Source: Kiloniellales bacterium | GTDB taxonomy: Bacteria > Pseudomonadota > Alphaproteobacteria > Kiloniellales > JAKSDN01 | Direction: 5' to 3' | Length of the DNA: 64,000 nucleotides | Assembly: GCA_041617155.1 (NCBI GenBank) | Contig: JBFJPL010000001.1 | Span: forward strand, 18,834-82,833 | Part shown: piece by piece, positions 6,268 through 63,542 of the stretch | How positions within the stretch are numbered: position 1 is the first letter of the stretch | How the letters are laid out: the number at the start of each line of letters is the position of its first letter | Notes under the pieces: model-generated | Told to the model about the DNA's origin: nothing | Databases searched by the model: none | What the model saw: the letters and a program-made list of their open reading frames with translations, nothing else | Position numbers and translations under genes: made by a program

Positions 6268-6299
6268 ATAATCAGTATTATGCGCATAATACTGATTAT
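6268..6299. promoter_or_regulatory. Perfect 32-bp palindrome ATAATCAGTATTATGC|GCATAATACTGATTAT, a putative tandem operator
   Basis: All 16 base pairs verified by hand. It is built from two nested ATAAT-N4-ATTAT units and ends 17 bp upstream of the 6317 start codon. Confidence 0.7.
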
Positions 6300-6316: not shown

Positions 6317-7504
6317 ATGGCACAGTCAATTTTCATCATCGCTGGCGGCGGTATCGGCGGTCTCGCCGCCGCTGTCGGCCTGGCCGGGAAGGGTATTCGG
6401 TCGATCGTGCTCGAACAAGCGCCGCAACTCGGTGAAATCGGTGCCGGCATACAGATCGGCCCGAACGCCTTCCACTGCTTCGACTATCTTGGCATCGGGG
6501 ACGAGGCCCGTGACAAGGCGGTCTACATCGATCAGCTGCGCCTGATGGACGCGACTTCGGGCGAAGAGATCACGCACATTCCTCTCGACGAACCTTTCCG
6601 CCGGCGCTTCGGCAACCCCTATGCGGTCGTGCACCGCGCAGACCTCCATGGTGTCCTGCTCGACGCATGCCGGCGCAGCGATCTGATCGACCTGCGCACC
6701 GACCATCGCGTCGAGGGGTACGACCAGGAAGCGGACGGCGTCCGGGTCCGCCTCGAAGGGCGCGACCCCGTCAACGGGGTTGCGCTAATAGCTGCCGAGG
6801 GGCTCAGGTCGCCGATCCGCGCTCAGATGATCGGCGACGGAGAGCCCGGTGTTTCCGGACATACGACCTATCGCTCGGTGATTCCGACGGAGCAGATGCC
6901 GGAGGATCTGCGCTGGAACGCGGCGACGCTCTGGGCCGGCCCGAAATGCCACATCGTTCATTATCCGCTCAAAGGCTGGAAGCTGTTCAACCTCGTCGTG
7001 ACCTATCACCGCGACGTCACCGAGGCCGTTGCCGGTGTGCCCGTTTCCAAGGAGGAAGTCCGCAAGGGCTTCGAGCACATCGCGCCCCGCGCCCGACAGG
7101 TGATCGAGCACGGCAAGGATTGGAAGCTCTGGGTTCTGTGCGACCGCGACCCGATTACCAATTGGATCGATGGCCGCGTCGTTCTGCTCGGCGACGCCGC
7201 GCATCCGATGCTGCAATATTTCGCGCAGGGCGCCTGCATGGCAATGGAAGACGGTGTCTGTCTCAGCCACATGATGGAGAAGCATGGCGGCAATATCGAC
7301 GCCGCCTTCGAGGCATATCGCGACCAGCGCGTCGTCCGCACCGCGCGGGTGCAAATGAGTTCGCGGCTGATCGGCGAATACATCTACCACCCCGACGGCG
7401 CCAAGGCCTTGGTCCGCAATGCGGTGATGAAATCGAAGAGCCCGGACGACTGGTACAACGGTCTTGCTTGGCTCTATGGCGGGACCGGTCTGACCGCCGC
7501 CTGA
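6317..7504 (+). CDS. FAD-dependent aromatic hydroxylase, most likely 3-hydroxybenzoate 6-hydroxylase
   Basis: IIAGGGIGGLAAAVGLAGKG (GxGxxG), RADLH, LLGDAAHPMLQYFAQGACMAMEDG. Sits directly upstream of gentisate 1,2-dioxygenase. Confidence 0.85.
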   Translation: MAQSIFIIAGGGIGGLAAAVGLAGKGIRSIVLEQAPQLGEIGAGIQIGPNAFHCFDYLGIGDEARDKAVYIDQLRLMDATSGEEITHIPLDEPFRRRFGNPYAVVHRADLHGVLLDACRRSDLIDLRTDHRVEGYDQEADGVRVRLEGRDPVNGVALIAAEGLRSPIRAQMIGDGEPGVSGHTTYRSVIPTEQMPEDLRWNAATLWAGPKCHIVHYPLKGWKLFNLVVTYHRDVTEAVAGVPVSKEEVRKGFEHIAPRARQVIEHGKDWKLWVLCDRDPITNWIDGRVVLLGDAAHPMLQYFAQGACMAMEDGVCLSHMMEKHGGNIDAAFEAYRDQRVVRTARVQMSSRLIGEYIYHPDGAKALVRNAVMKSKSPDDWYNGLAWLYGGTGLTAA

Positions 7505-40008: not shown

Positions 40009-40761
40009 ATGGGGCGACTGGAGGGAAAACGGGCTTTCATAACCGGCGCCGGCGCCGGCATCGGCGCCGCTGCGGCGGAACTCTTCGTCCGAGAAGGCGC
40101 CAAGGTGGCGCTCGCGGACATCGACGTGGCGGGCGGCCAACGTGCCGCCGAGGCGGCCAACGCGGCCGGTGGCGAAGCCCTGTTCCTGGAGACCGACGTG
40201 GCCGATCCGCAAAGCATCGAAGCGTCCATCGGGCAGGCGGCCGCGGCTTTCGGCGGCCTCGACATTCTCTACAACAACGCCGGCGGTGCCTCGGCGCGCG
40301 ACGGCAGCGTGCTCGACATCCCGCTGGCGGAATTCTGGCGCACCATCAACGTCGATCTCTACGGCACCTTCCTCGGCTGCCGTTTCGCCATACCGCATCT
40401 GCGCGCGTCCGGCGGCGGCTCGATCATCAACACCACCTCGATCCGCGCCATGAAGGGCACGCGCGGCGCCGATGCCTACACCTCGGCCAAGGGCGGCGTG
40501 CTGACCCTGACCAAGGCGCTCGCCATGCAGTGCGCGCCCTGGAAGATCCGGGTCAACGCCATAGCGCCCGGCGCCGTGTTGACCGAGCGGACCCGCTCCA
40601 TGGGTATGACTGGCGACGACGACGGCACCAACCCGGCGCGCCCGGTTCGCACCGGCCGGCCGGTGGAGGTTGCCTGGATGGCGGTCTTCCTGGCTTCGCC
40701 GGAAAGTAGCCTGGTGAACGGCGCGGTGATCCCGGTGGACAGCGGCGCCAGCGCATTCTAG
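40009..40761 (+). CDS. Short-chain dehydrogenase/reductase (SDR)
   Basis: TGAGAGIG, NNAG, and the S...YxxxK (YTSAKGG) catalytic pattern. Confidence 0.88.
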   Translation: MGRLEGKRAFITGAGAGIGAAAAELFVREGAKVALADIDVAGGQRAAEAANAAGGEALFLETDVADPQSIEASIGQAAAAFGGLDILYNNAGGASARDGSVLDIPLAEFWRTINVDLYGTFLGCRFAIPHLRASGGGSIINTTSIRAMKGTRGADAYTSAKGGVLTLTKALAMQCAPWKIRVNAIAPGAVLTERTRSMGMTGDDDGTNPARPVRTGRPVEVAWMAVFLASPESSLVNGAVIPVDSGASAF

Positions 40762-40851
40762 CGCCGTGGCGAGCTTTGAACGGTCAAGGGATTTCGAACG
40801 GCGCCCGCGCCCGTCGGGAGCGCGGGGCTCTTGGCGTACCGAGACCCGGCG

Positions 40852-41019
40852 TCAGCTCTTGTGCTGCTGCTGCATCAGCACGGCGAGTACGCCGTCCCAG
40901 GTATTGGCCTGACAAGCGTGGACCGCCTCTTCCCAACCGAGGCAATTGAGCAGGCTGTGAGCCAGCTGTTCCTGGTAGCTACGGGTCTCCAAGGTCTGCG
41001 GCGCGGAATGCTCTGCCAT
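40852..41019 (-). CDS. Small hypothetical protein, 55 aa
   Basis: Manual translation gives MAEHSAPQTLETRSYQEQLAHSLLNCLGWEEAVHACQANTWDGVLAVLMQQQHKS. Strong SD (AAGGGGAGG) 8 nt upstream. It is below the track cut-off. The overlapping plus-strand track ORF 40831-41079 lacks support. Confidence 0.6.
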   Translation of the reverse strand: MAEHSAPQTLETRSYQEQLAHSLLNCLGWEEAVHACQANTWDGVLAVLMQQQHKS

Positions 41020-41179
41020 TTTCCTGACCTCCCCTTACCGTCACTGGCGACTTTCGAAGCCGCAATCGTCGGCCTCTAAGAGGCCTCAATGTGAAAGAAT
41101 TTTACAATAGACCTGTTGCCGACGACTTAAATTTTATATTTAATTTTTCGAGAAAATACGATTTTGTCTGGAATATTCA

Positions 41180-41207
41180 AGTATAATTCCAGTATCAACT
41201 AAGTATA
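41180..41207. repeat. Three AGTAT[AC] direct repeats phased at exactly 11 bp within a very AT-rich tract
   Basis: Repeat starts at 41180, 41191 and 41202 (AGTATAATTCC AGTATCAACTA AGTATA). An adjacent GAATATTC palindrome lies at 41171-41178. Confidence 0.55.
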
Positions 41208-41397
41208 TATGCTTAATTATCTATGTATCGAGCCGCTGCCCGATGAGGCGGGGTCGCCAAAAGCGGCCGCGCCCGGGCCAAGCCGAGCGCCTTGGCGCCG
41301 TTCTTGATTTCGGATTGTTCGTGCTACGGCCCGGCGACCGGGCCCGGGCTTCCGTTGCCGGGCCCGTGTCACCACGCGCGCGTTGTCTTGAGCGACA

Positions 41398-41628
41398 CTA
41401 GCTGGCGGCGCGAACCTGGCGCCGGCGCTTTTGTACCACTTGACGGATCTGGGTCACGTTGGACGGAACCTCGTCCTTCGAATCAACCTGCTTCAACACG
41501 GAAAGCGGCAGGCCGTTCAGCATGCCCCAGGGTAGTTTCAAGTCCACTTTCGGGTCCTGCTCGAAGGTTCGTCCGACCACTTCGCCTGTAACCTCCAAGA
41601 CGACATGTACCTTATCGCCTAAGTCCAT
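41398..41628 (-). CDS. Hypothetical protein, 76 aa, with a basic C-terminus
   Basis: AGGAGGG SD upstream of the ATG. GC-rich hairpins at about 41330-41385 lie just downstream of its stop. No family recognised. Confidence 0.6.
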   Translation of the reverse strand: MDLGDKVHVVLEVTGEVVGRTFEQDPKVDLKLPWGMLNGLPLSVLKQVDSKDEVPSNVTQIRQVVQKRRRQVRAAS

Positions 41629-42168
41629 CTTGCCCTCCTAAGGATTCCGACCGAGCAAAGATTCGTTCTTACCCCAGCGCTGTTCTATAAAAGAGTAATG
41701 AGTTTTAAGAAATTGTCAATTATCTTTGTTTACGAATTAGTAACCTTTTCGCAATTGCGATAGGATTTTGTTAGAAATAGCTATCGGCGCTAATAGATTT
41801 CTATGAGTAATTTAAGATCAAGATTCTCGGGCCCATGAGCTGTCCAAATATTCCGCGTGACGTCACAGAGTGATGTGCTAGCGATGGTGGCGAAACTATT
41901 GCCGCCGCACGCTCGCATATTGCGCCTCCGGCAATCCGCCGGCATGAATTCGGATGTTCGATCCCGGCCCTGAATCTGACTATAAGGTCGGCCGCAAAGG
42001 CTTCCGGGGCGCAACGCGGCGCCCTCCCCGGGCCGCCCGGCAGGTGGAACTTATACTTGGCACAGCTAGTAAAATCTAAAACCGACTCCGCGCCGCCATG
42101 GTTAACACTTTCGAAATTTTGACAAATTAATCTAAATCCGATCTTTAATTCATTTGGCGTGACGAACG

Positions 42169-42507
42169 ATGCAGGCAACCAACGAGACAGCCGCCGAGCG
42201 GCAAATCCCCGACGACGACCGGCGCCGCCAGCAGCGGGCAGCCGTACTCTGGGCGGCAAGCCTTGAATGCGGCGGCCAGGTCGCCGACTGCGTCGTGCTG
42301 AACCTCGGGCTGACGGGAGCCCTGCTGCGCATGGCCGTGCCGTTCGAGCGCAGCTATCCGGTCACCTTGCATTCCTACCATTTCGGCCATCTCGATGGCC
42401 GGGTGATCTGGCAGGAAGGCAACGCCGTCGGCCTGAAGTTCGAGGGCGAGCCGGACCAGGTGGTGGAAACCCTGTCGCGCGCCTTGCCGGAACTGACCGC
42501 GGCCTAA
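42169..42507 (+). CDS. PilZ-domain protein (putative c-di-GMP receptor)
   Basis: RRRQQR (RxxxR) followed by VVLNLGLTGALL, a variant of the D/NxSxxG motif. Size is typical of single-domain PilZ proteins. Confidence 0.72.
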   Translation: MQATNETAAERQIPDDDRRRQQRAAVLWAASLECGGQVADCVVLNLGLTGALLRMAVPFERSYPVTLHSYHFGHLDGRVIWQEGNAVGLKFEGEPDQVVETLSRALPELTAA

Positions 42508-42587
42508 CTTCTCGCCGACCGTCGCAATCGACAGCGGCGCACGGCCATCGCGCCGCCGCGGGAAAACCGCGCGGCGTGTGCCGTCGA

Positions 42588-43283
42588 TCAGGTCTCGCGC
42601 GGCCTCAGATGGGCATGCCAGCGGTGCTCGGCCTGCTTGAAGAGCCACACGATCAGGAAGGTCATGCCGAGATAGAAGAGGCCGGCAACGATAAAGGACT
42701 GGAAGGGCACGAAGTGCCGCGAGTTGACGATCTTCGCGGCGCCGAACAGGTCGACCACGGTAATGACGCCGGCGATGACGCTGCCATGCAGCATGAAGAT
42801 GACCTCGTTGCCGTAGGCGGGCAGGGCGCGGCGAAAGGCGCTGGGCAGGATGATCCGGCGCAGCATCAGGCCCCTGGACATGCCGCAGGCACGGGCCGCC
42901 TCGATCTCGCCGAAGTGGGTCTGCTCGATGGCGCCGCGCAGGATCTCCGCGGTATAGGCGGCGGTATTGAGTGCGAAGGCGATCAAGGCGCACCAATAGG
43001 CCTCCTTCAGGACCAGCCACAGGAAGCTCTCCCGCACCGCCTCGAACTGGCCGGCGCCGGCGTAGATCAGGAAGGCCTGAACCAGAAGCGGTGTGCCGCG
43101 GAAGAAGTAGATGTAGGCCTTCGGCAGGCCGGCGATCAGCGGGTTCCGGGAGGCGGCTAGGACGGCCATGGGAACCGCCAGGCAAAGGCCGAGCGCGAGC
43201 GCCATGACCACGAGCTGTATGGTGACCCACAATCCCTCGAGATAGAGCGGCAGATTATCGATGACGACCGCGAAATCGTCCAT
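42588..43283 (-). CDS. Polar amino-acid/opine ABC transporter permease (HisM-like)
   Basis: EAA-loop region EAARACGMSRGLMLRRIILP and polytopic topology. Confidence 0.88.
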   Translation of the reverse strand: MDDFAVVIDNLPLYLEGLWVTIQLVVMALALGLCLAVPMAVLAASRNPLIAGLPKAYIYFFRGTPLLVQAFLIYAGAGQFEAVRESFLWLVLKEAYWCALIAFALNTAAYTAEILRGAIEQTHFGEIEAARACGMSRGLMLRRIILPSAFRRALPAYGNEVIFMLHGSVIAGVITVVDLFGAAKIVNSRHFVPFQSFIVAGLFYLGMTFLIVWLFKQAEHRWHAHLRPRET

Positions 43284-60870: not shown

Positions 60871-62865
60871 TCAGCTTGCCCGCTTGAGCGGTTCGGCCTC
60901 GTAGGTCTCCGCCGCTCCGATCTTCAGGTCGGCGGACAACCTGCCCTTGCGGCCGTCCTCGAAGGTCACTTCGGTGTCGATGTGCACCCGCTCCGCATCG
61001 GAGTAGAGCCCGTCGATCAGGGGCAGGTACTTGTCGGCGACGATGCGCCGGCGGACCTTGCGGGTGCGGGTCAACTCGCCGTCGTCGGCATCGAGTTCCT
61101 TGTGCAGGATCAGGAAGCGCTTGATCTGCGAAGACGCGAGGTGGGGGTCGGTCGAGAGGTCGCGGTTGACCTGCGCGACATGCTCGCGAACGATCTCGTA
61201 GACCTCGGGCAGCGCCGCCAGCTCCTGGTAGCTGCCGTACGGCACGCCGTGCCGCTCGGCCCAGCTGCCGACCGCTTCCAGATCGATGTTGATGAAGGCG
61301 GCGACGTGGTCGCGGCCGTCGCCGAAGGCGACCGCCTCCTTGATTTCAGGAAAGAACTTCAGCTTGTTCTCGATGAACTTCGGCGCGAACAGGCTGCCGT
61401 CGTTCAGCTTGCCGACGTCCTTGGCCCGGTCGATGATCTTGAGCTGGCCGTCGTCGCCGAGGAACCCGGCGTCGCCCGTGTGCACCCAGCCGTCCGCGCT
61501 CTTGGTTTCGGCGGTTGCCTCGGGGCTCTTGTAGTACTCCAGGAATACGCCGGGGCTCTTGAACAGGACTTCGCCGTTGTCGGCGATCTTGATTTCGACC
61601 TCGGGCGCCGGTTTGCCGACGGTGTCCGGCTTGATCTCGCCGTCCGGCTGGATGGTGATGAAGACGCTGGCCTCGGTCGAGCCGTAGAGCTGCTTCAGGT
61701 TGATGCCGAGCGCCCGGTAGAAGTCGAAGATGTCCGGCCCGATCGCCTCGCCGGCGGTATAGGCCAGTCGGATCCGGCTGAAGCCGAGGGTGTTCTTCAA
61801 GGGGCCGTAGACCAAGAGCCCGCCCAGGGCATAGAGGAGCCGGTCGCCCGGCGGCACCGGCCGGCCGGCCAGGATGTCGACGCCGCAGCGCCGGGCCACG
61901 GCCATGAAGGCGTGGAACATCTTGCGCTTGAGCCAGCTGGCGTCCTCCATGCGGATCATCACCGTGGTCAGGATGCTCTCGAAGATCCGCGGCGGGGCGA
62001 AGAAATAGGTCGGGCCCAGCTCACGCAGGTCGTGCATCACCGTGGCGCTCGATTCCGGGCAGCTCACGCAGAAGCCGGCACAGTAGCTCTGGCCGTAGGA
62101 AAAGATGTGGTCGCCGACCCAGGCCATCGGCAGGTAGGCCAGCATCTCCTCGTCGGCGGTCAGGCCTTCGAAGTCGATGCCGTTCTGCGCCGTGCGGATC
62201 ACGTTCTCGAAGCTGAGCACGACGCCCTTGGGCTGGCCCGTCGTGCCCGAGGTGTAGAGGTAGATCGAGACGTCGCCGCCCTTGGCCTTCGCGACCTCGA
62301 CATCGAAGAAGCCCGGGTTGTCCCGATCGAAGGCGCGGCCCCGGCTCTGGACCTCATCGAATTCGGTCAGGAAGTCCTGGCGGTAGTGGCGCATGCCCCG
62401 GGAGTCGTCGAAGATGACCTGCTCCAGCTTCGGGCAGCGATCCTTGATCTCGAGCAGCTTGTCGATCTGCTCCTGATCCTCGGCCATGGCGAATCGGGCC
62501 TCGGCGTGGTCGATCACGAAGGCCATCTCGTCGGCCACCGAATCCTGGTAGATCGGCACCGGAATGCCGCCGACCGCCTGCGCGGCGACCATGGTCCAAT
62601 AGAGCCGCGGCCGGTTGTCGCCGATGATCGCCACCTTGTCGCCGCGCTTGAGGCCGAGCGCCGTCATGCCGCAGGCCAACGCCCTGACCTGGTCGAGCAC
62701 TTCGCGCCAGGTCCAGGACTGCCAGATGCCCAGGTCCTTCTCGCGCATGGCCGGCAGGTCGCCGCGCTTTTCGGCGTTGTGGATCAGCAGCTTTGGAAAG
62801 GTATCGCAGCCGTCTGGCGCCTGCCGCGTCGTTTGGCTCGATTTCGGACCGACAACGTCGTTCAT
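60871..62865 (-). CDS. Long-chain-fatty-acid-CoA-ligase-like AMP-binding enzyme
   Basis: YLYTSGTTGQPKGV AMP-binding motif and TGDAG. ATG at 62865. The track start at 62925 is over-extended. Confidence 0.88.
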   Translation of the reverse strand: MNDVVGPKSSQTTRQAPDGCDTFPKLLIHNAEKRGDLPAMREKDLGIWQSWTWREVLDQVRALACGMTALGLKRGDKVAIIGDNRPRLYWTMVAAQAVGGIPVPIYQDSVADEMAFVIDHAEARFAMAEDQEQIDKLLEIKDRCPKLEQVIFDDSRGMRHYRQDFLTEFDEVQSRGRAFDRDNPGFFDVEVAKAKGGDVSIYLYTSGTTGQPKGVVLSFENVIRTAQNGIDFEGLTADEEMLAYLPMAWVGDHIFSYGQSYCAGFCVSCPESSATVMHDLRELGPTYFFAPPRIFESILTTVMIRMEDASWLKRKMFHAFMAVARRCGVDILAGRPVPPGDRLLYALGGLLVYGPLKNTLGFSRIRLAYTAGEAIGPDIFDFYRALGINLKQLYGSTEASVFITIQPDGEIKPDTVGKPAPEVEIKIADNGEVLFKSPGVFLEYYKSPEATAETKSADGWVHTGDAGFLGDDGQLKIIDRAKDVGKLNDGSLFAPKFIENKLKFFPEIKEAVAFGDGRDHVAAFINIDLEAVGSWAERHGVPYGSYQELAALPEVYEIVREHVAQVNRDLSTDPHLASSQIKRFLILHKELDADDGELTRTRKVRRRIVADKYLPLIDGLYSDAERVHIDTEVTFEDGRKGRLSADLKIGAAETYEAEPLKRAS

Positions 62866-63145
62866 GGCCCGGTCCCCGCCGTCGAGGGCCGGCGATCGGG
62901 CCCGTGAACCGATCGGCCGTGGCAAACGCGATTAAGACCGGGGACGCGGTCCCCGCGCGTGATCGAGGTCACGCCAACCTCCCTGTTTCTACAAACCCCG
63001 GGTTATTTTGGCCCCGGATTGGTCCGGGGCCTCGGGTTGTTCCTGGCGCGGAGTTTAGTGCGCCCTGCCGGCCATGACAATCACGGCAAGCAAGCGGGGT
63101 TTCCGCTCTTTCGGAGCGGGCGTAGAAACGTCGCCAGTTCAGGCC

Positions 63146-63244
63146 TTAGCTGGTCGCGACACCGACCGCGATCAGGATCGCGAAGGCGGCGACGAGGAAA
63201 ATCCAGGTGTTCTTCTTCAGGGTCTGGGCAATACGCTCGGCCAT
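63146..63244 (-). CDS. Putative 32-aa single-TM peptide
   Basis: Manual translation gives MAERIAQTLKKNTWIFLVAAFAILIAVGVATS. GGAGAG lies 7 nt upstream. It sits upstream of, and co-directional with, the CoA-ligase/ABC operon. Confidence 0.4.
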   Translation of the reverse strand: MAERIAQTLKKNTWIFLVAAFAILIAVGVATS

Positions 63245-63542
63245 AATATGTCTCTCCCGTTGTATTGGGTCGCCCGGACCTCATGTCCGGTTTGTTGCGG
63301 TTACTGTTACCGACGCTCGAGATTTTACGGAATAACCTTGACAGTCAATAATTGATTGTTAACCAAAGACTTTTTTGTAAAAGACAGACTCTTCCGAAGT
63401 GTAAATTTGTCAAACCAGTAAAGCCGGTGCGGCGGCTGTTTGGCGCATGGGGGTGCCATCCTGCTATAGCTTCCGGCGGGCCGGGCCGCCTCGGATCGAG
63501 CCCGGCGGTGCCTCGCAGGCGCATCGAGCCTGGGTGGAGGGG

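Follow-up and report, generated by a model that had tools for sequence, protein, structure and literature searches.

The AT-rich islet studied here is best explained as ordinary regulatory DNA that comprises the promoter regions of three separately transcribed small genes, a reading to which we assign a probability of about three in four. These genes encode a 55-aa protein (40852-41019, minus strand), a 76-aa protein (41398-41628, minus strand), and a single-domain, 112-aa PilZ protein (42169-42507, plus strand) whose gene is divergent from the 76-aa gene; "the window" denotes the whole 64-kb stretch of DNA that was analysed. Rather than being a single element, the islet probably consists of three adjacent 5' regulatory regions, with one AT-rich patch directly upstream of each small gene. 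The trio itself is in all likelihood ancestral and vertically inherited, lying beside an amino-acid ABC transporter operon in an uncultured Kiloniellales/Rhodospirillales-like alphaproteobacterial clade.

Base composition and promoters of the three small genes

A scan of GC content in 100-bp windows confirmed the AT-rich patches that the initial annotation had described in this GC-rich DNA, and direct reading of the sequence indicated that all the motifs it had named were correct, as were their coordinates. Mean GC content is 0.655 across the window (sd 0.064, 100-bp windows), with values <0.45 in just 0.9% of 100-bp windows. Three of the six window segments below 0.45 fall in the islet, namely 41040-41268, 41611-41877, and 42035-42208, with 100-bp minima of 0.21, 0.27, and 0.36, respectively, and the islet patches are the most AT-rich of the 64-kb window (100-bp GC down to 0.21-0.36 compared with a mean of 0.66). 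This AT-richness is limited to the 5' non-coding sides of the three genes: the neighbouring 3' intergenic gaps have a GC content of 0.72-0.74, and GC3 is 0.73-0.84 for the 55-aa, 76-aa, and PilZ genes compared with 0.83-0.91 for their neighbours, the 55-aa and 76-aa genes (0.73 and 0.77) being slightly under the latter.

For the 76-aa gene, phylogenetic footprinting shows a predicted sigma-70-type promoter. Its core (41692-41719, minus strand) is formed by a -35 TTGACA (41719-41714), a 16-nt spacer, and a -10 TACTCT (41697-41692), with the -35 overlapped by an invariant 15-mer, TTGA-N7-TTAA (41719-41705, minus strand). TTGAC[AG] followed by TTAA at +11 nt was present in 14/14 lineages, and the hexamer at the 16-nt spacer started with TA in 10 of the 14 and ended with T in 13 of them; L024 is the exception at this spacing and carries TAATAT at a 17-nt spacer. 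A simple promoter scanner missed this promoter because TACTCT matches TATAAT at just three of six positions. Within the core, conservation is lowest at the assigned -10, and CTTTTATAGAA, just downstream, is better conserved. We infer both this -10 and the transcription start, which would lie near 41684-41686 on the minus strand and give a short leader. Identity to close relatives was 81-86% for the core promoter, which is about equal to or above that of synonymous sites (0.78-0.88), and 85-92% for the predicted 57-nt leader (41629-41685, minus strand; Shine-Dalgarno GGAGG), which is at or above those sites; the corresponding values in L046 were 0.77 and 0.68, compared with 0.59 at synonymous sites. 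The leader appears unstructured in a single-sequence fold (z = +1.17), and no consensus RNA structure or covariation was detected for it among 11 distant and 6 close relatives.

Abutting the -35 is a UP-element-like, A-rich block (41720-41744, minus strand) with an imperfect dyad, GTTAC-N6-GTAAAC-AAAGATAA, which is kept in the window, L048, L044, L045, L030, L046, L027, L035, and L021. Beyond this block, a distal A/T tract (41745-41830) keeps its composition but not its sequence. GC content in the -51 to -200 bins upstream of the 76-aa gene was 0.20-0.54, mostly 0.22-0.42, in 13/14 lineages, yet the distal part of the tract is only 50-76% identical in sequence, and between -131 and -210 identity to close relatives is 71-76%, no higher than at synonymous sites. 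Neither helical AA/TT periodicity (9.5-11.5 bp) nor curvature was found in the A/T tracts of 12 lineages or in 41081-41240. Such tracts may raise promoter strength through alpha-CTD contacts and easy melting and/or may serve an AT-preferring nucleoid protein such as MucR as a landing pad. The sequence WTTGACAAWTT has exactly three copies in the window, all of them in AT-rich promoter regions, and allowing one mismatch gave 4 matches compared with 0.69 expected.

Residues 1-48 of the 76-aa protein are predicted to form a small beta domain, with a basic tail joined to it through a variable acidic linker. None of its 54 homologues carries a Pfam domain; 32 residues are invariant across 26 sequences, and among 1.84 billion proteins the family amounts to just 14 clusters at 50% identity. 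An AF2 model had a mean pLDDT of 60 (core 75-81, tail <50) and gave no Foldseek match in the PDB at E<0.001, HHalign of the family against PilZ returned a probability of 1.8%, and neither the 76-aa nor the 55-aa protein matched Pfam, NCBIfam, PHROGs, PADLOC, or PDB sequences. As judged from these comparisons, the 76-aa protein is the founding member of a rare, lineage-restricted family without known relatives. The GC-rich 3' region of its gene (41241-41397, minus strand; GC 0.71) contains a strong hairpin (arms 41328-41338 and 41354-41364; fold z = -2.0) whose core is kept in L030, L044, and L048 and which is not a canonical intrinsic terminator because no T-run follows it.

The 55-aa protein likewise lacks known relatives beyond the lineage, with 14 homologues of 55-61 aa (12/14 exactly 55), none of which has a Pfam domain. 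Upstream of its gene lies a conserved core block (41095-41148, minus strand) that includes a -10-like TTGTAAAAT at 41107-41099 and is nearly invariant in L048, L050, L044, and L030, and the combination of TTGTA[AC]AAT and TTAAA..TTAA is also present in L027, L028, L021, and L032. Transcription would start at ~41092 on the minus strand and yield a short leader. This predicted leader (41020-41093, minus strand) has a minimum free energy of -27.8 kcal/mol (z = -1.95) and may form a hairpin in which CCUCUU is paired with the Shine-Dalgarno GGGAGG, a helix that is paired in 94% of cells over 4 relatives, with a shuffle control that was not significant; L045 has no counterpart of this region.

The PilZ protein matched Pfam PF07238 with 39.1 bits (cut-off 22.5; E = 1e-9) over residues 17-104 of 112. 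Across 5 orthologues, R18, R19, and R23 of the RRxxxR motif are invariant, and in the second motif, N45-x-G47-x-x-G50, glycine replaces the serine of (D/N)xSxxG in 5/5. The upstream control block of the gene (42098-42124, plus strand) comprises TTAACCAT on the minus strand (42105-42098), the invariant 17-mer TTAACACTTTCGAAATT (42102-42118), which contains the palindrome TTTCGAAA, and then TTGACA (42119-42124). This block is near-invariant in all aligned PilZ-bearing lineages, with one base differing in L046/L047, and TTTGACAAATT recurs at 63404-63414. No good -10 lies at a 17-nt spacing, the best candidate being TTTAAT at 19 nt, and transcription is expected to start at ~42150-42156 (plus strand), again with a short leader. 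Inspection by eye of the regions upstream of the PilZ and 55-aa genes for sigma-54 and EcfG-type motifs revealed only unsuitable spacings.

Candidate regulators and the phased repeats

CtrA belongs to the OmpR/PhoB-type regulator family, and the invariant TTGA-N7-TTAA across the 76-aa -35 may be a binding site for a CtrA-type winged-helix response regulator. It is conceivable, if doubtful, that CtrA itself binds this element and the TTAACCAT half-sites, which would place the 76-aa gene and PilZ in a motility/cell-cycle regulon; this proposal refines the promoter account rather than competing with it. Besides the presence of TTGA-N7-TTAA in all 14 lineages, it is favoured by L033 and L034, in which the second half is TTAACCAT, giving TTGA-N7-TTAAC, and by TTAACCAT copies that lie 5' of the 76-aa gene in 10 loci from relatives, at -132 to -144 relative to the start codon in L044, L030, L021, L027-29, L032, and L035. 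The sole copy of TTAACCAT in the 64-kb window (42098-42105) is also located within the gap between PilZ and the 76-aa gene. Known CtrA sites are the full TTAA-N7-TTAAC and the half TTAACCAT, and degenerate sites that share TTAA sequences alone are bound as well (PMC3692519). However, the exact full site TTAA-N7-TTAAC has 0 matches in the window, where the conserved element reads TTGA-N7-TTAAA, and TTGA is invariably found as the first half, for which a sigma-70 -35 hexamer is an equally good explanation. Furthermore, the window, L045, L046, L025, and L024 have lost the upstream TTAACCAT, and whole-window shuffles overstate motif enrichment because A/T-rich motifs are expected in A/T-rich DNA.

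In Caulobacter, CtrA-activated promoters are reportedly the MucR targets. CtrA could possibly also counteract silencing by MucR at the A/T tract, and the link between MucR proteins and cell-cycle (S-to-G1) transcription in Caulobacter (PMC4083442) is in keeping with this idea. A tblastn search of the 64-kb window with an approximate Ros query found no mucR gene.

A broader proposal, which we regard as unlikely, is that PilZ and the 76-aa and 55-aa proteins constitute a conserved small-protein signalling module of a marine alphaproteobacterial clade, in which the 76-aa mini beta-domain protein would work with the atypical NxGxxG PilZ, both of these genes would be transcribed from promoters with CtrA-like boxes, and a MucR-type nucleoid protein would occupy the A/T tracts. 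If true, the locus would represent an ancestral, non-xenogeneic use of silencer/counter-silencer logic.

The initial annotation had instead pointed to a set of phased repeats as resembling an OmpR/PhoB-type site or iteron-like elements. These lie in a lineage-specific distal A/T tract (41150-41230) that also holds GAATATTC (41171-41178), and they consist of AGTATA at 41180, AGTATC at 41191, and AGTATA at 41202, with an 11-bp spacing. A functional activator site of this type (41180-41207), recently arisen in this species and located ~90-115 bp upstream of the 55-aa promoter, strikes us as rather improbable. The phased AGTAT triple is statistically unusual, being found in 0/2000 dinucleotide shuffles of 41081-41230 and in 6/2000 of the whole islet, which is above chance, and 11-bp direct-repeat geometry is typical of winged-helix response regulators, which the triple fits. 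Nevertheless, the motif was picked after inspection of the sequence, and only its middle unit, as ATACT, is common to the four closest relatives (L048, L050, L044, and L030), in which the 76-aa protein is 89-97% identical; several substitutions separate the flanking units from these relatives, and in L027 and L021 the tract is rich in GC. Thus, the direct-repeat phase held up, but the conservation of the units in relatives did not. The idea of a phased OmpR/PhoB-type site would be partly rescued by TTGA-N7-TTAA at 41705-41719, which it fits instead and which resembles a CtrA box. A connection of the AGTAT units to a 32-bp palindrome at 6268-6299 was discarded, as the half-site does not match them.

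The perfect 12-bp palindrome TCGCAATTGCGA (41749-41760), located in the distal tract of the 76-aa gene together with the inverted arms TAGAAAT (41772-41778) and ATTTCTA (41797-41803), is within chance, given that the window has 42 perfect palindromes of this length and that one or more arise in 32% of islet shuffles. Palindromes of 8 bp number 14 in the islet, compared with ~6 in shuffles and ~8 predicted from the window density (459 in 64 kb); the majority are GC-rich and lie within the 3' region of the 76-aa gene. The three AGTAT units, GAATATTC, TCGCAATTGCGA, the TAGAAAT/ATTTCTA arms, and TGACGTCA (41858-41865) are missing even where the 76-aa protein is 96-97% identical. None of them being kept in relatives, they do not qualify as conserved sites, an outcome that the initial annotation had itself named as speaking against them. 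Most likely, the AGTAT triple and the palindromes are confined to this species and are incidental products of drift in A/T-rich DNA.

Origin of the islet and content of the divergent gap

About 12 distinct lineages, represented by Kiloniellales/Rhodospirillales-like metagenome-assembled genomes with 76-aa proteins that are 62-97% identical, share the arrangement ABC permease, PilZ (divergent), 76-aa gene, 55-aa gene. The divergent pairing of PilZ with the 76-aa gene was found in most lineages, and the 55-aa gene follows the 76-aa gene in the window, L048, L050, L044, L030, L027, L028, L032, L021, L033, and L031. PilZ has been lost in the L021, L024, and L025 lineages, and synteny breaks after the 55-aa gene.

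This shared context bears on the suggestion that the islet is horizontally acquired, AT-rich DNA silenced by an H-NS-like protein, which we consider very improbable. GC content does dip to 0.21-0.37 against a genome value of 0.66, GC3 of the two small genes (0.73 and 0.77) is a little below that of the neighbours, and MucR is described as an AT-preferring, H-NS-like silencer of alphaproteobacteria (PMC9410896; PMC10746212). However, the trio occupies the same chromosomal context in ~12 lineages together with its AT-rich 5' regions, GC3 is host-like, and only the 5' non-coding sides are AT-rich, the coding regions and 3' gaps being GC-rich. In addition, blastn against plasmid and phage collections gave no match to the region, PHROG and PADLOC searches gave no phage or defence signal at the locus, ARAGORN found no tRNA in the window, and no integrase or bounding repeats turned up (the repeat search covered copies within 120 bp). 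The locus therefore shows none of the patchy presence, foreign gene composition, mobility genes, or tRNA/att boundary of a xenogeneic AT-rich island, and we reject the claim of foreign origin; a nucleoid protein may still plausibly bind the A/T tract itself, an option retained within the promoter account. Iterons or a replication origin were also considered and rejected: no DnaA box (<=1 mismatch) lies within 16 kb, and no initiator-like gene was found among the 38.5-45 kb ORFs, six of which were scanned against Pfam and the rest named from precomputed Pfam matches.

The 540-bp gap between the 76-aa and PilZ genes had been described as free of any convincing ORF, and we agree: a 74-aa ORF (41790-42014, minus strand) is truncated or lost in relatives, and neither it nor its internal start is conserved as a gene. 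The gap's GC-rich spacer (41831-42040), which holds TGACGTCA and the island CGCACGCTCGCATATT (41906-41921), shares 70-74% identity with L030 and L045, and most of it is deleted in L046, L027, L033, and L037. An sRNA, a riboswitch-like long leader, or a small protein encoded in the gap is the least probable of the explanations weighed here. In its favour are the length of the gap, the invariance of the short island in 5-6 lineages, and a plus strand that folds slightly better than shuffles over 41830-42060 (z = -1.67, compared with +0.80 for the other strand). However, the middle 210 bp are 70-74% identical to close relatives, below the 78-88% at synonymous sites, and so evolve at least as fast as those sites. 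A search of the gap for terminator-like sites gave none, the predicted leaders are short and lack structure, and no consensus RNA structure emerged. The Rfam covariance scan called for by the initial annotation found no real match: Rfam 15 had 0 window matches at the gathering score, and 40700-42600 at E<=5 gave only two chance snoRNA matches (E = 2.9).

Taken together, the suggestion that the AT-rich DNA is regulatory stands, in that it lies upstream of the small genes, and nucleoid-protein binding stays plausible, but its acquired, sRNA, and conserved-repeat components do not. Beyond annotation this matters little, as it takes one candidate for an acquired islet or sRNA off the list. It does illustrate that, in an alphaproteobacterial genome rich in GC, patches of strongly AT-rich DNA can represent promoter architecture that is ancestral and whose composition is under selection. 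Candidate promoter elements are also delimited, both for two small-protein families and for a lone PilZ gene whose binding motif is atypical.

Comparison with known systems

The 76-aa promoter resembles sigma-70 promoters with a UP element in its near-consensus TTGACA, 16-17-nt spacer, TAnnnT hexamer, and A-rich block immediately 5' of the -35, and a TTGACAA[AT]TT box is found at three promoters of the window. It differs from them in that its A/T tract extends 100-150 bp past a normal UP element, with only composition kept, in the invariant TTAA within the spacer, and in the unusually conserved start-site region, CTTTTATAGAA.

Like CtrA-dependent promoters, the 76-aa promoter has two tetranucleotides 11 bp apart that overlap the -35, with TTAACCAT half-sites close by in many lineages and a PilZ neighbour, but the first half is TTGA rather than TTAA, the exact full site is absent from the window, and CtrA binding is putative. 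The islet shares with MucR/Ros target regions a strongly AT-rich tract at promoters in a GC-rich alphaproteobacterial genome (PMC9410896; PMC10746212). The DNA here differs in being ancestral and in having no helical A/T periodicity and no mucR in the 64-kb window, and binding is again putative.

Caulobacter DgrA and DgrB are stand-alone, single-domain PilZ proteins. The PilZ protein described here is similar to them in its length (~110 aa), in consisting of the PilZ domain only, and in its RRxxxR motif. In contrast with such proteins, its second motif is NxGxxG rather than (D/N)xSxxG in 5/5 orthologues, its c-di-GMP binding is putative, and its gene shows a conserved divergent pairing with that of a 76-aa family protein.

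Three promoter regions in a conserved gene trio

The region is ordinary promoter DNA of three small genes, unusually AT-rich and well conserved; the evidence did not support the earlier readings (acquired DNA, an sRNA gene, iteron-like repeats). The genes are a 55-aa ORF (40852-41019) and a 76-aa ORF (41398-41628), both on the minus strand, and a divergent PilZ gene on the plus strand (42169-42507; Pfam PF07238, 39.1 bits). Against a mean GC content of 65.5% (SD 6.4%), just 0.9% of 100-bp windows fell below 45% GC, and three of the six such segments lay here (41040-41268, 41611-41877 and 42035-42208, with GC minima of 21%, 27% and 36%), so the AT-rich patches are as conspicuous as initially described. 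Every patch flanks a single gene on its 5' side, with a GC of 0.39 for the 55-aa gene (41020-41240), 0.37 for the 76-aa gene (41629-41830) and 0.41 for PilZ (42041-42168); GC was 0.63-0.74 in the 3' non-coding stretches (41241-41397, 40762-40851, 42508-42587) and in the middle (41831-42040) of the 540-bp gap between the 76-aa and PilZ genes. GC3 was 0.73-0.84 in the trio versus 0.83-0.91 in neighbouring genes. Since the AT-richness is restricted to 5' sides and GC3 is close to that of the host, the "islet" is a row of three promoter regions and no block of foreign composition.

The 76-aa protein had 54 homologues, none with a Pfam domain, and when 1.84 billion representatives were searched with a profile of the family, just 14 clusters at 50% identity emerged; the named genomes carrying it are MAGs of uncultured Kiloniellales or Rhodospirillales. 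Homologues of the 55-aa protein numbered 14; their lengths ranged over 55-61 residues, with exactly 55 in 12 of them. Among the lineages compared for synteny (76-aa protein identity 62-97%), about 12 shared the order amino-acid ABC permease genes, PilZ (opposite strand), 76-aa gene and 55-aa gene, with PilZ absent from L021, L024 and L025/L036 only. Phage and plasmid collections gave no sequence similar to the region, and PHROG and PADLOC searches gave no match. The three genes are an ancestral set passed on vertically; their synteny, 5'-restricted AT-richness and lack of phage or plasmid matches speak against the proposed acquisition.

After the position of the 55-aa gene, most relatives, L021, L024 and L027 among them, carry yggT and folD behind a tRNA gene, and in L021 and L027 a DUF167 gene is interposed; in L024, an HTH-domain gene stands where the 55-aa gene would be. 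In the window (40009-40761), L048 and L030, an SDR gene takes this downstream position, and L030 (1939-2157) retains just the final ~72 codons of it; the break in synteny lies outside the AT-rich finding. Distant relatives of the 76-aa domain occur in a different gene context on four ~52% GC marine contigs (L039, L040, L042, L043; two from Tara Oceans), where a small hydrophobic ORF (MTRKLLEQICNLFIWCSIFGLTIFSLVAFG) precedes the match and its stop overlaps the start codon (TGATG).

Predicted promoters and candidate regulators

Comparison of the lineages shows three conserved promoter-type blocks, one per small gene, which are probably sigma-70-type promoters. In all 14 lineages, TTGAC[AG] stood 90-106 nt ahead of the start codon of the 76-aa gene and was followed by TTAA at a constant distance of 11 nt (predicted -35 in the window, 41719-41714, minus strand). 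The hexamer at a 16-nt spacer (predicted -10, 41697-41692, minus strand) began with TA in 10 of the 14 and ended in T in 13, and TAATAT at a 17-nt spacer fits the -10 pattern in L024; judged by sequence, this conservation is that of a sigma-70 -10 element. Transcription is predicted to start near 41684-41686 (minus strand), so that the leader would measure 57 nt and include GGAGG as its Shine-Dalgarno sequence.

Identity to L044/L045/L030 was 85-92% in this leader, 81-86% in the core promoter and 71-76% in the distal A/T tract, the yardstick being 78-88% at synonymous sites of the 76-aa gene; the GC-rich mid-gap reached 70-74% (L045 and L030 only). For L046, leader and core scored 0.68 and 0.77 versus 0.59 at synonymous sites. 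Adjoining the -35 upstream, the block GTTAC-N6-GTAAAC-AAAGATAA (41744-41720), which is A-rich and contains an imperfect dyad, was kept in nine lineages. Since GC at -51 to -200 stayed at 0.20-0.54 (mostly 0.22-0.42) in 13 of 14 lineages while distal identity was low, this stretch has kept its composition and not its sequence. The A/T tracts had no helical AA/TT periodicity.

Upstream of PilZ, TTAACACTTTCGAAATT (42102-42118) was kept in all aligned PilZ-bearing lineages, L046 and L047 differing at one base; within it lies the palindrome TTTCGAAA, missing from the initial annotation, and it abuts TTGACA (42119-42124). The block upstream of the 55-aa gene, which ends in TTGTAAAAT (41107-41099), was kept in close relatives; TTGTACAAT was found in more distant lineages. 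WTTGACAAWTT occurred exactly three times in the window, at two promoters of this locus and at an AT-rich promoter near 63404; it therefore seems to be a strong -35 context of this organism in general and not a locus-specific element.

That third promoter region (63273-63451) shares the TTTGACAAATT box with the PilZ promoter and also contains GTTAACAATCAATTATTGAC. It lies before a hydrophobic ORF of 32 aa that has no annotation (63149-63244, minus strand; MAERIAQTLKKNTWIFLVAAFAILIAVGVATS) and that precedes a 684-aa ORF (60871-62925, minus strand) that by eye looks like an acyl-CoA ligase. An AT-rich gap at 1356-1528 contains CTTGTAAAATAAC (1420-1435), in which the -10-like block TTGTAAAAT of the 55-aa promoter recurs. 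In another short AT-rich gap, a perfect 32-bp palindrome (ATAATCAGTATTATGC/GCATAATACTGATTAT, 6268-6299) that looks like a repressor operator precedes, by ~20 bp, a gene on the plus strand (start at 6318); the N-terminus of its product (MAQSIFIIAGGGIGG...) resembles FAD-dependent monooxygenases.

A/T-rich DNA upstream of the three promoters would raise their activity in the fashion of an UP element, and may also recruit an AT-preferring nucleoid protein, as MucR/Ros is described in alphaproteobacteria (PMC9410896; PMC10746212). The invariant TTGA-N7-TTAA over the -35 of the 76-aa gene could also be a putative CtrA box, a possible but rather unlikely refinement of this picture: together with TTAACCAT half-sites in many lineages it resembles the CtrA sites given in PMC3692519. 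However, its first half-site is equally explained as the -35 hexamer of a sigma-70-type promoter, and the window contained no exact full CtrA site. Because CtrA is a winged-helix regulator of OmpR/PhoB type, the earlier idea of an 11-bp phased response-regulator site would find a home at this element and not at the AGTAT units for which it was proposed.

Species-specific motifs and RNA readings

All motifs listed initially were found in place, the arms of the TAGAAAT/ATTTCTA inverted repeat being adjusted to 41772-41778 and 41797-41803. The three AGTAT units at 11-bp phase are unusual compared with dinucleotide shuffles (0/2000 of the tract, 6/2000 of the islet); perfect 12-bp palindromes are not, with 42 in the window and at least one in 32% of islet shuffles. 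In close relatives (76-aa protein identity 97% for L048 and L050, 96% for L044, 91% for L045, 89% for L030), only the middle AGTAT unit was present, GAATATTC was not kept, TCGCAATTGCGA was replaced by GTTAACCATAACG-type or other sequence, and the TAGAAAT/ATTTCTA arms and TGACGTCA were likewise not kept, with non-compensatory changes; the distal tract with the AGTAT units was GC-rich in L027 and L021. Being mostly absent from relatives, these motifs are specific to this species. As for the AGTAT triple, it could have arisen recently as a site or be accidental, and we rate a function for it as quite unlikely.

The region matched no Rfam family and contained no tRNA gene. The suggested sRNA fared poorly, with mid-gap fold z-scores of -1.67 and +0.80 on the two strands and the mid-gap identity of 70-74%, as did a long regulated leader, since the predicted 57-nt leader had neither consensus structure nor covariation among relatives (z = +1.17). 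A 74-aa ORF within the 540-bp gap was rejected as unconserved, in agreement with the view that the gap has no convincing ORF. An island, CGCACGCTCGCATATT (41906-41921), was invariant in 5-6 lineages amid the fast-evolving, GC-rich mid-gap.

The 55-aa leader can fold into a hairpin pairing CCUCUU with the Shine-Dalgarno sequence (z = -1.95); 94% of cells in this helix were paired across four relatives, although the structure derives from one of the sequences and the shuffle control was not significant. Straight after the 76-aa stop codon (minus strand, 41241-41397), a GC-rich hairpin (z = -2.0) with arms at 41328-41338 and 41354-41364 shows strong conservation across L030, L044 and L048 but is followed by no T-run; stabilisation of the 3' end or atypical termination may be its role.

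PilZ and the 76-aa protein

In the PilZ protein, RRxxxR was conserved, but the second motif read NxGxxG in 5/5 orthologues. The 76-aa protein is predicted to begin with a small beta domain (residues 1-48, pLDDT 75-81), continue in an acidic, disordered linker and finish with a basic tail; PDB searches by fold and by sequence gave no relative, and no relation to PilZ could be detected. The conserved divergent pairing of the two genes hints at a functional link. What is new here is the promoters, one PilZ gene of the stand-alone type and a pair of small proteins for which no relatives are known, all of kinds that have been described before.
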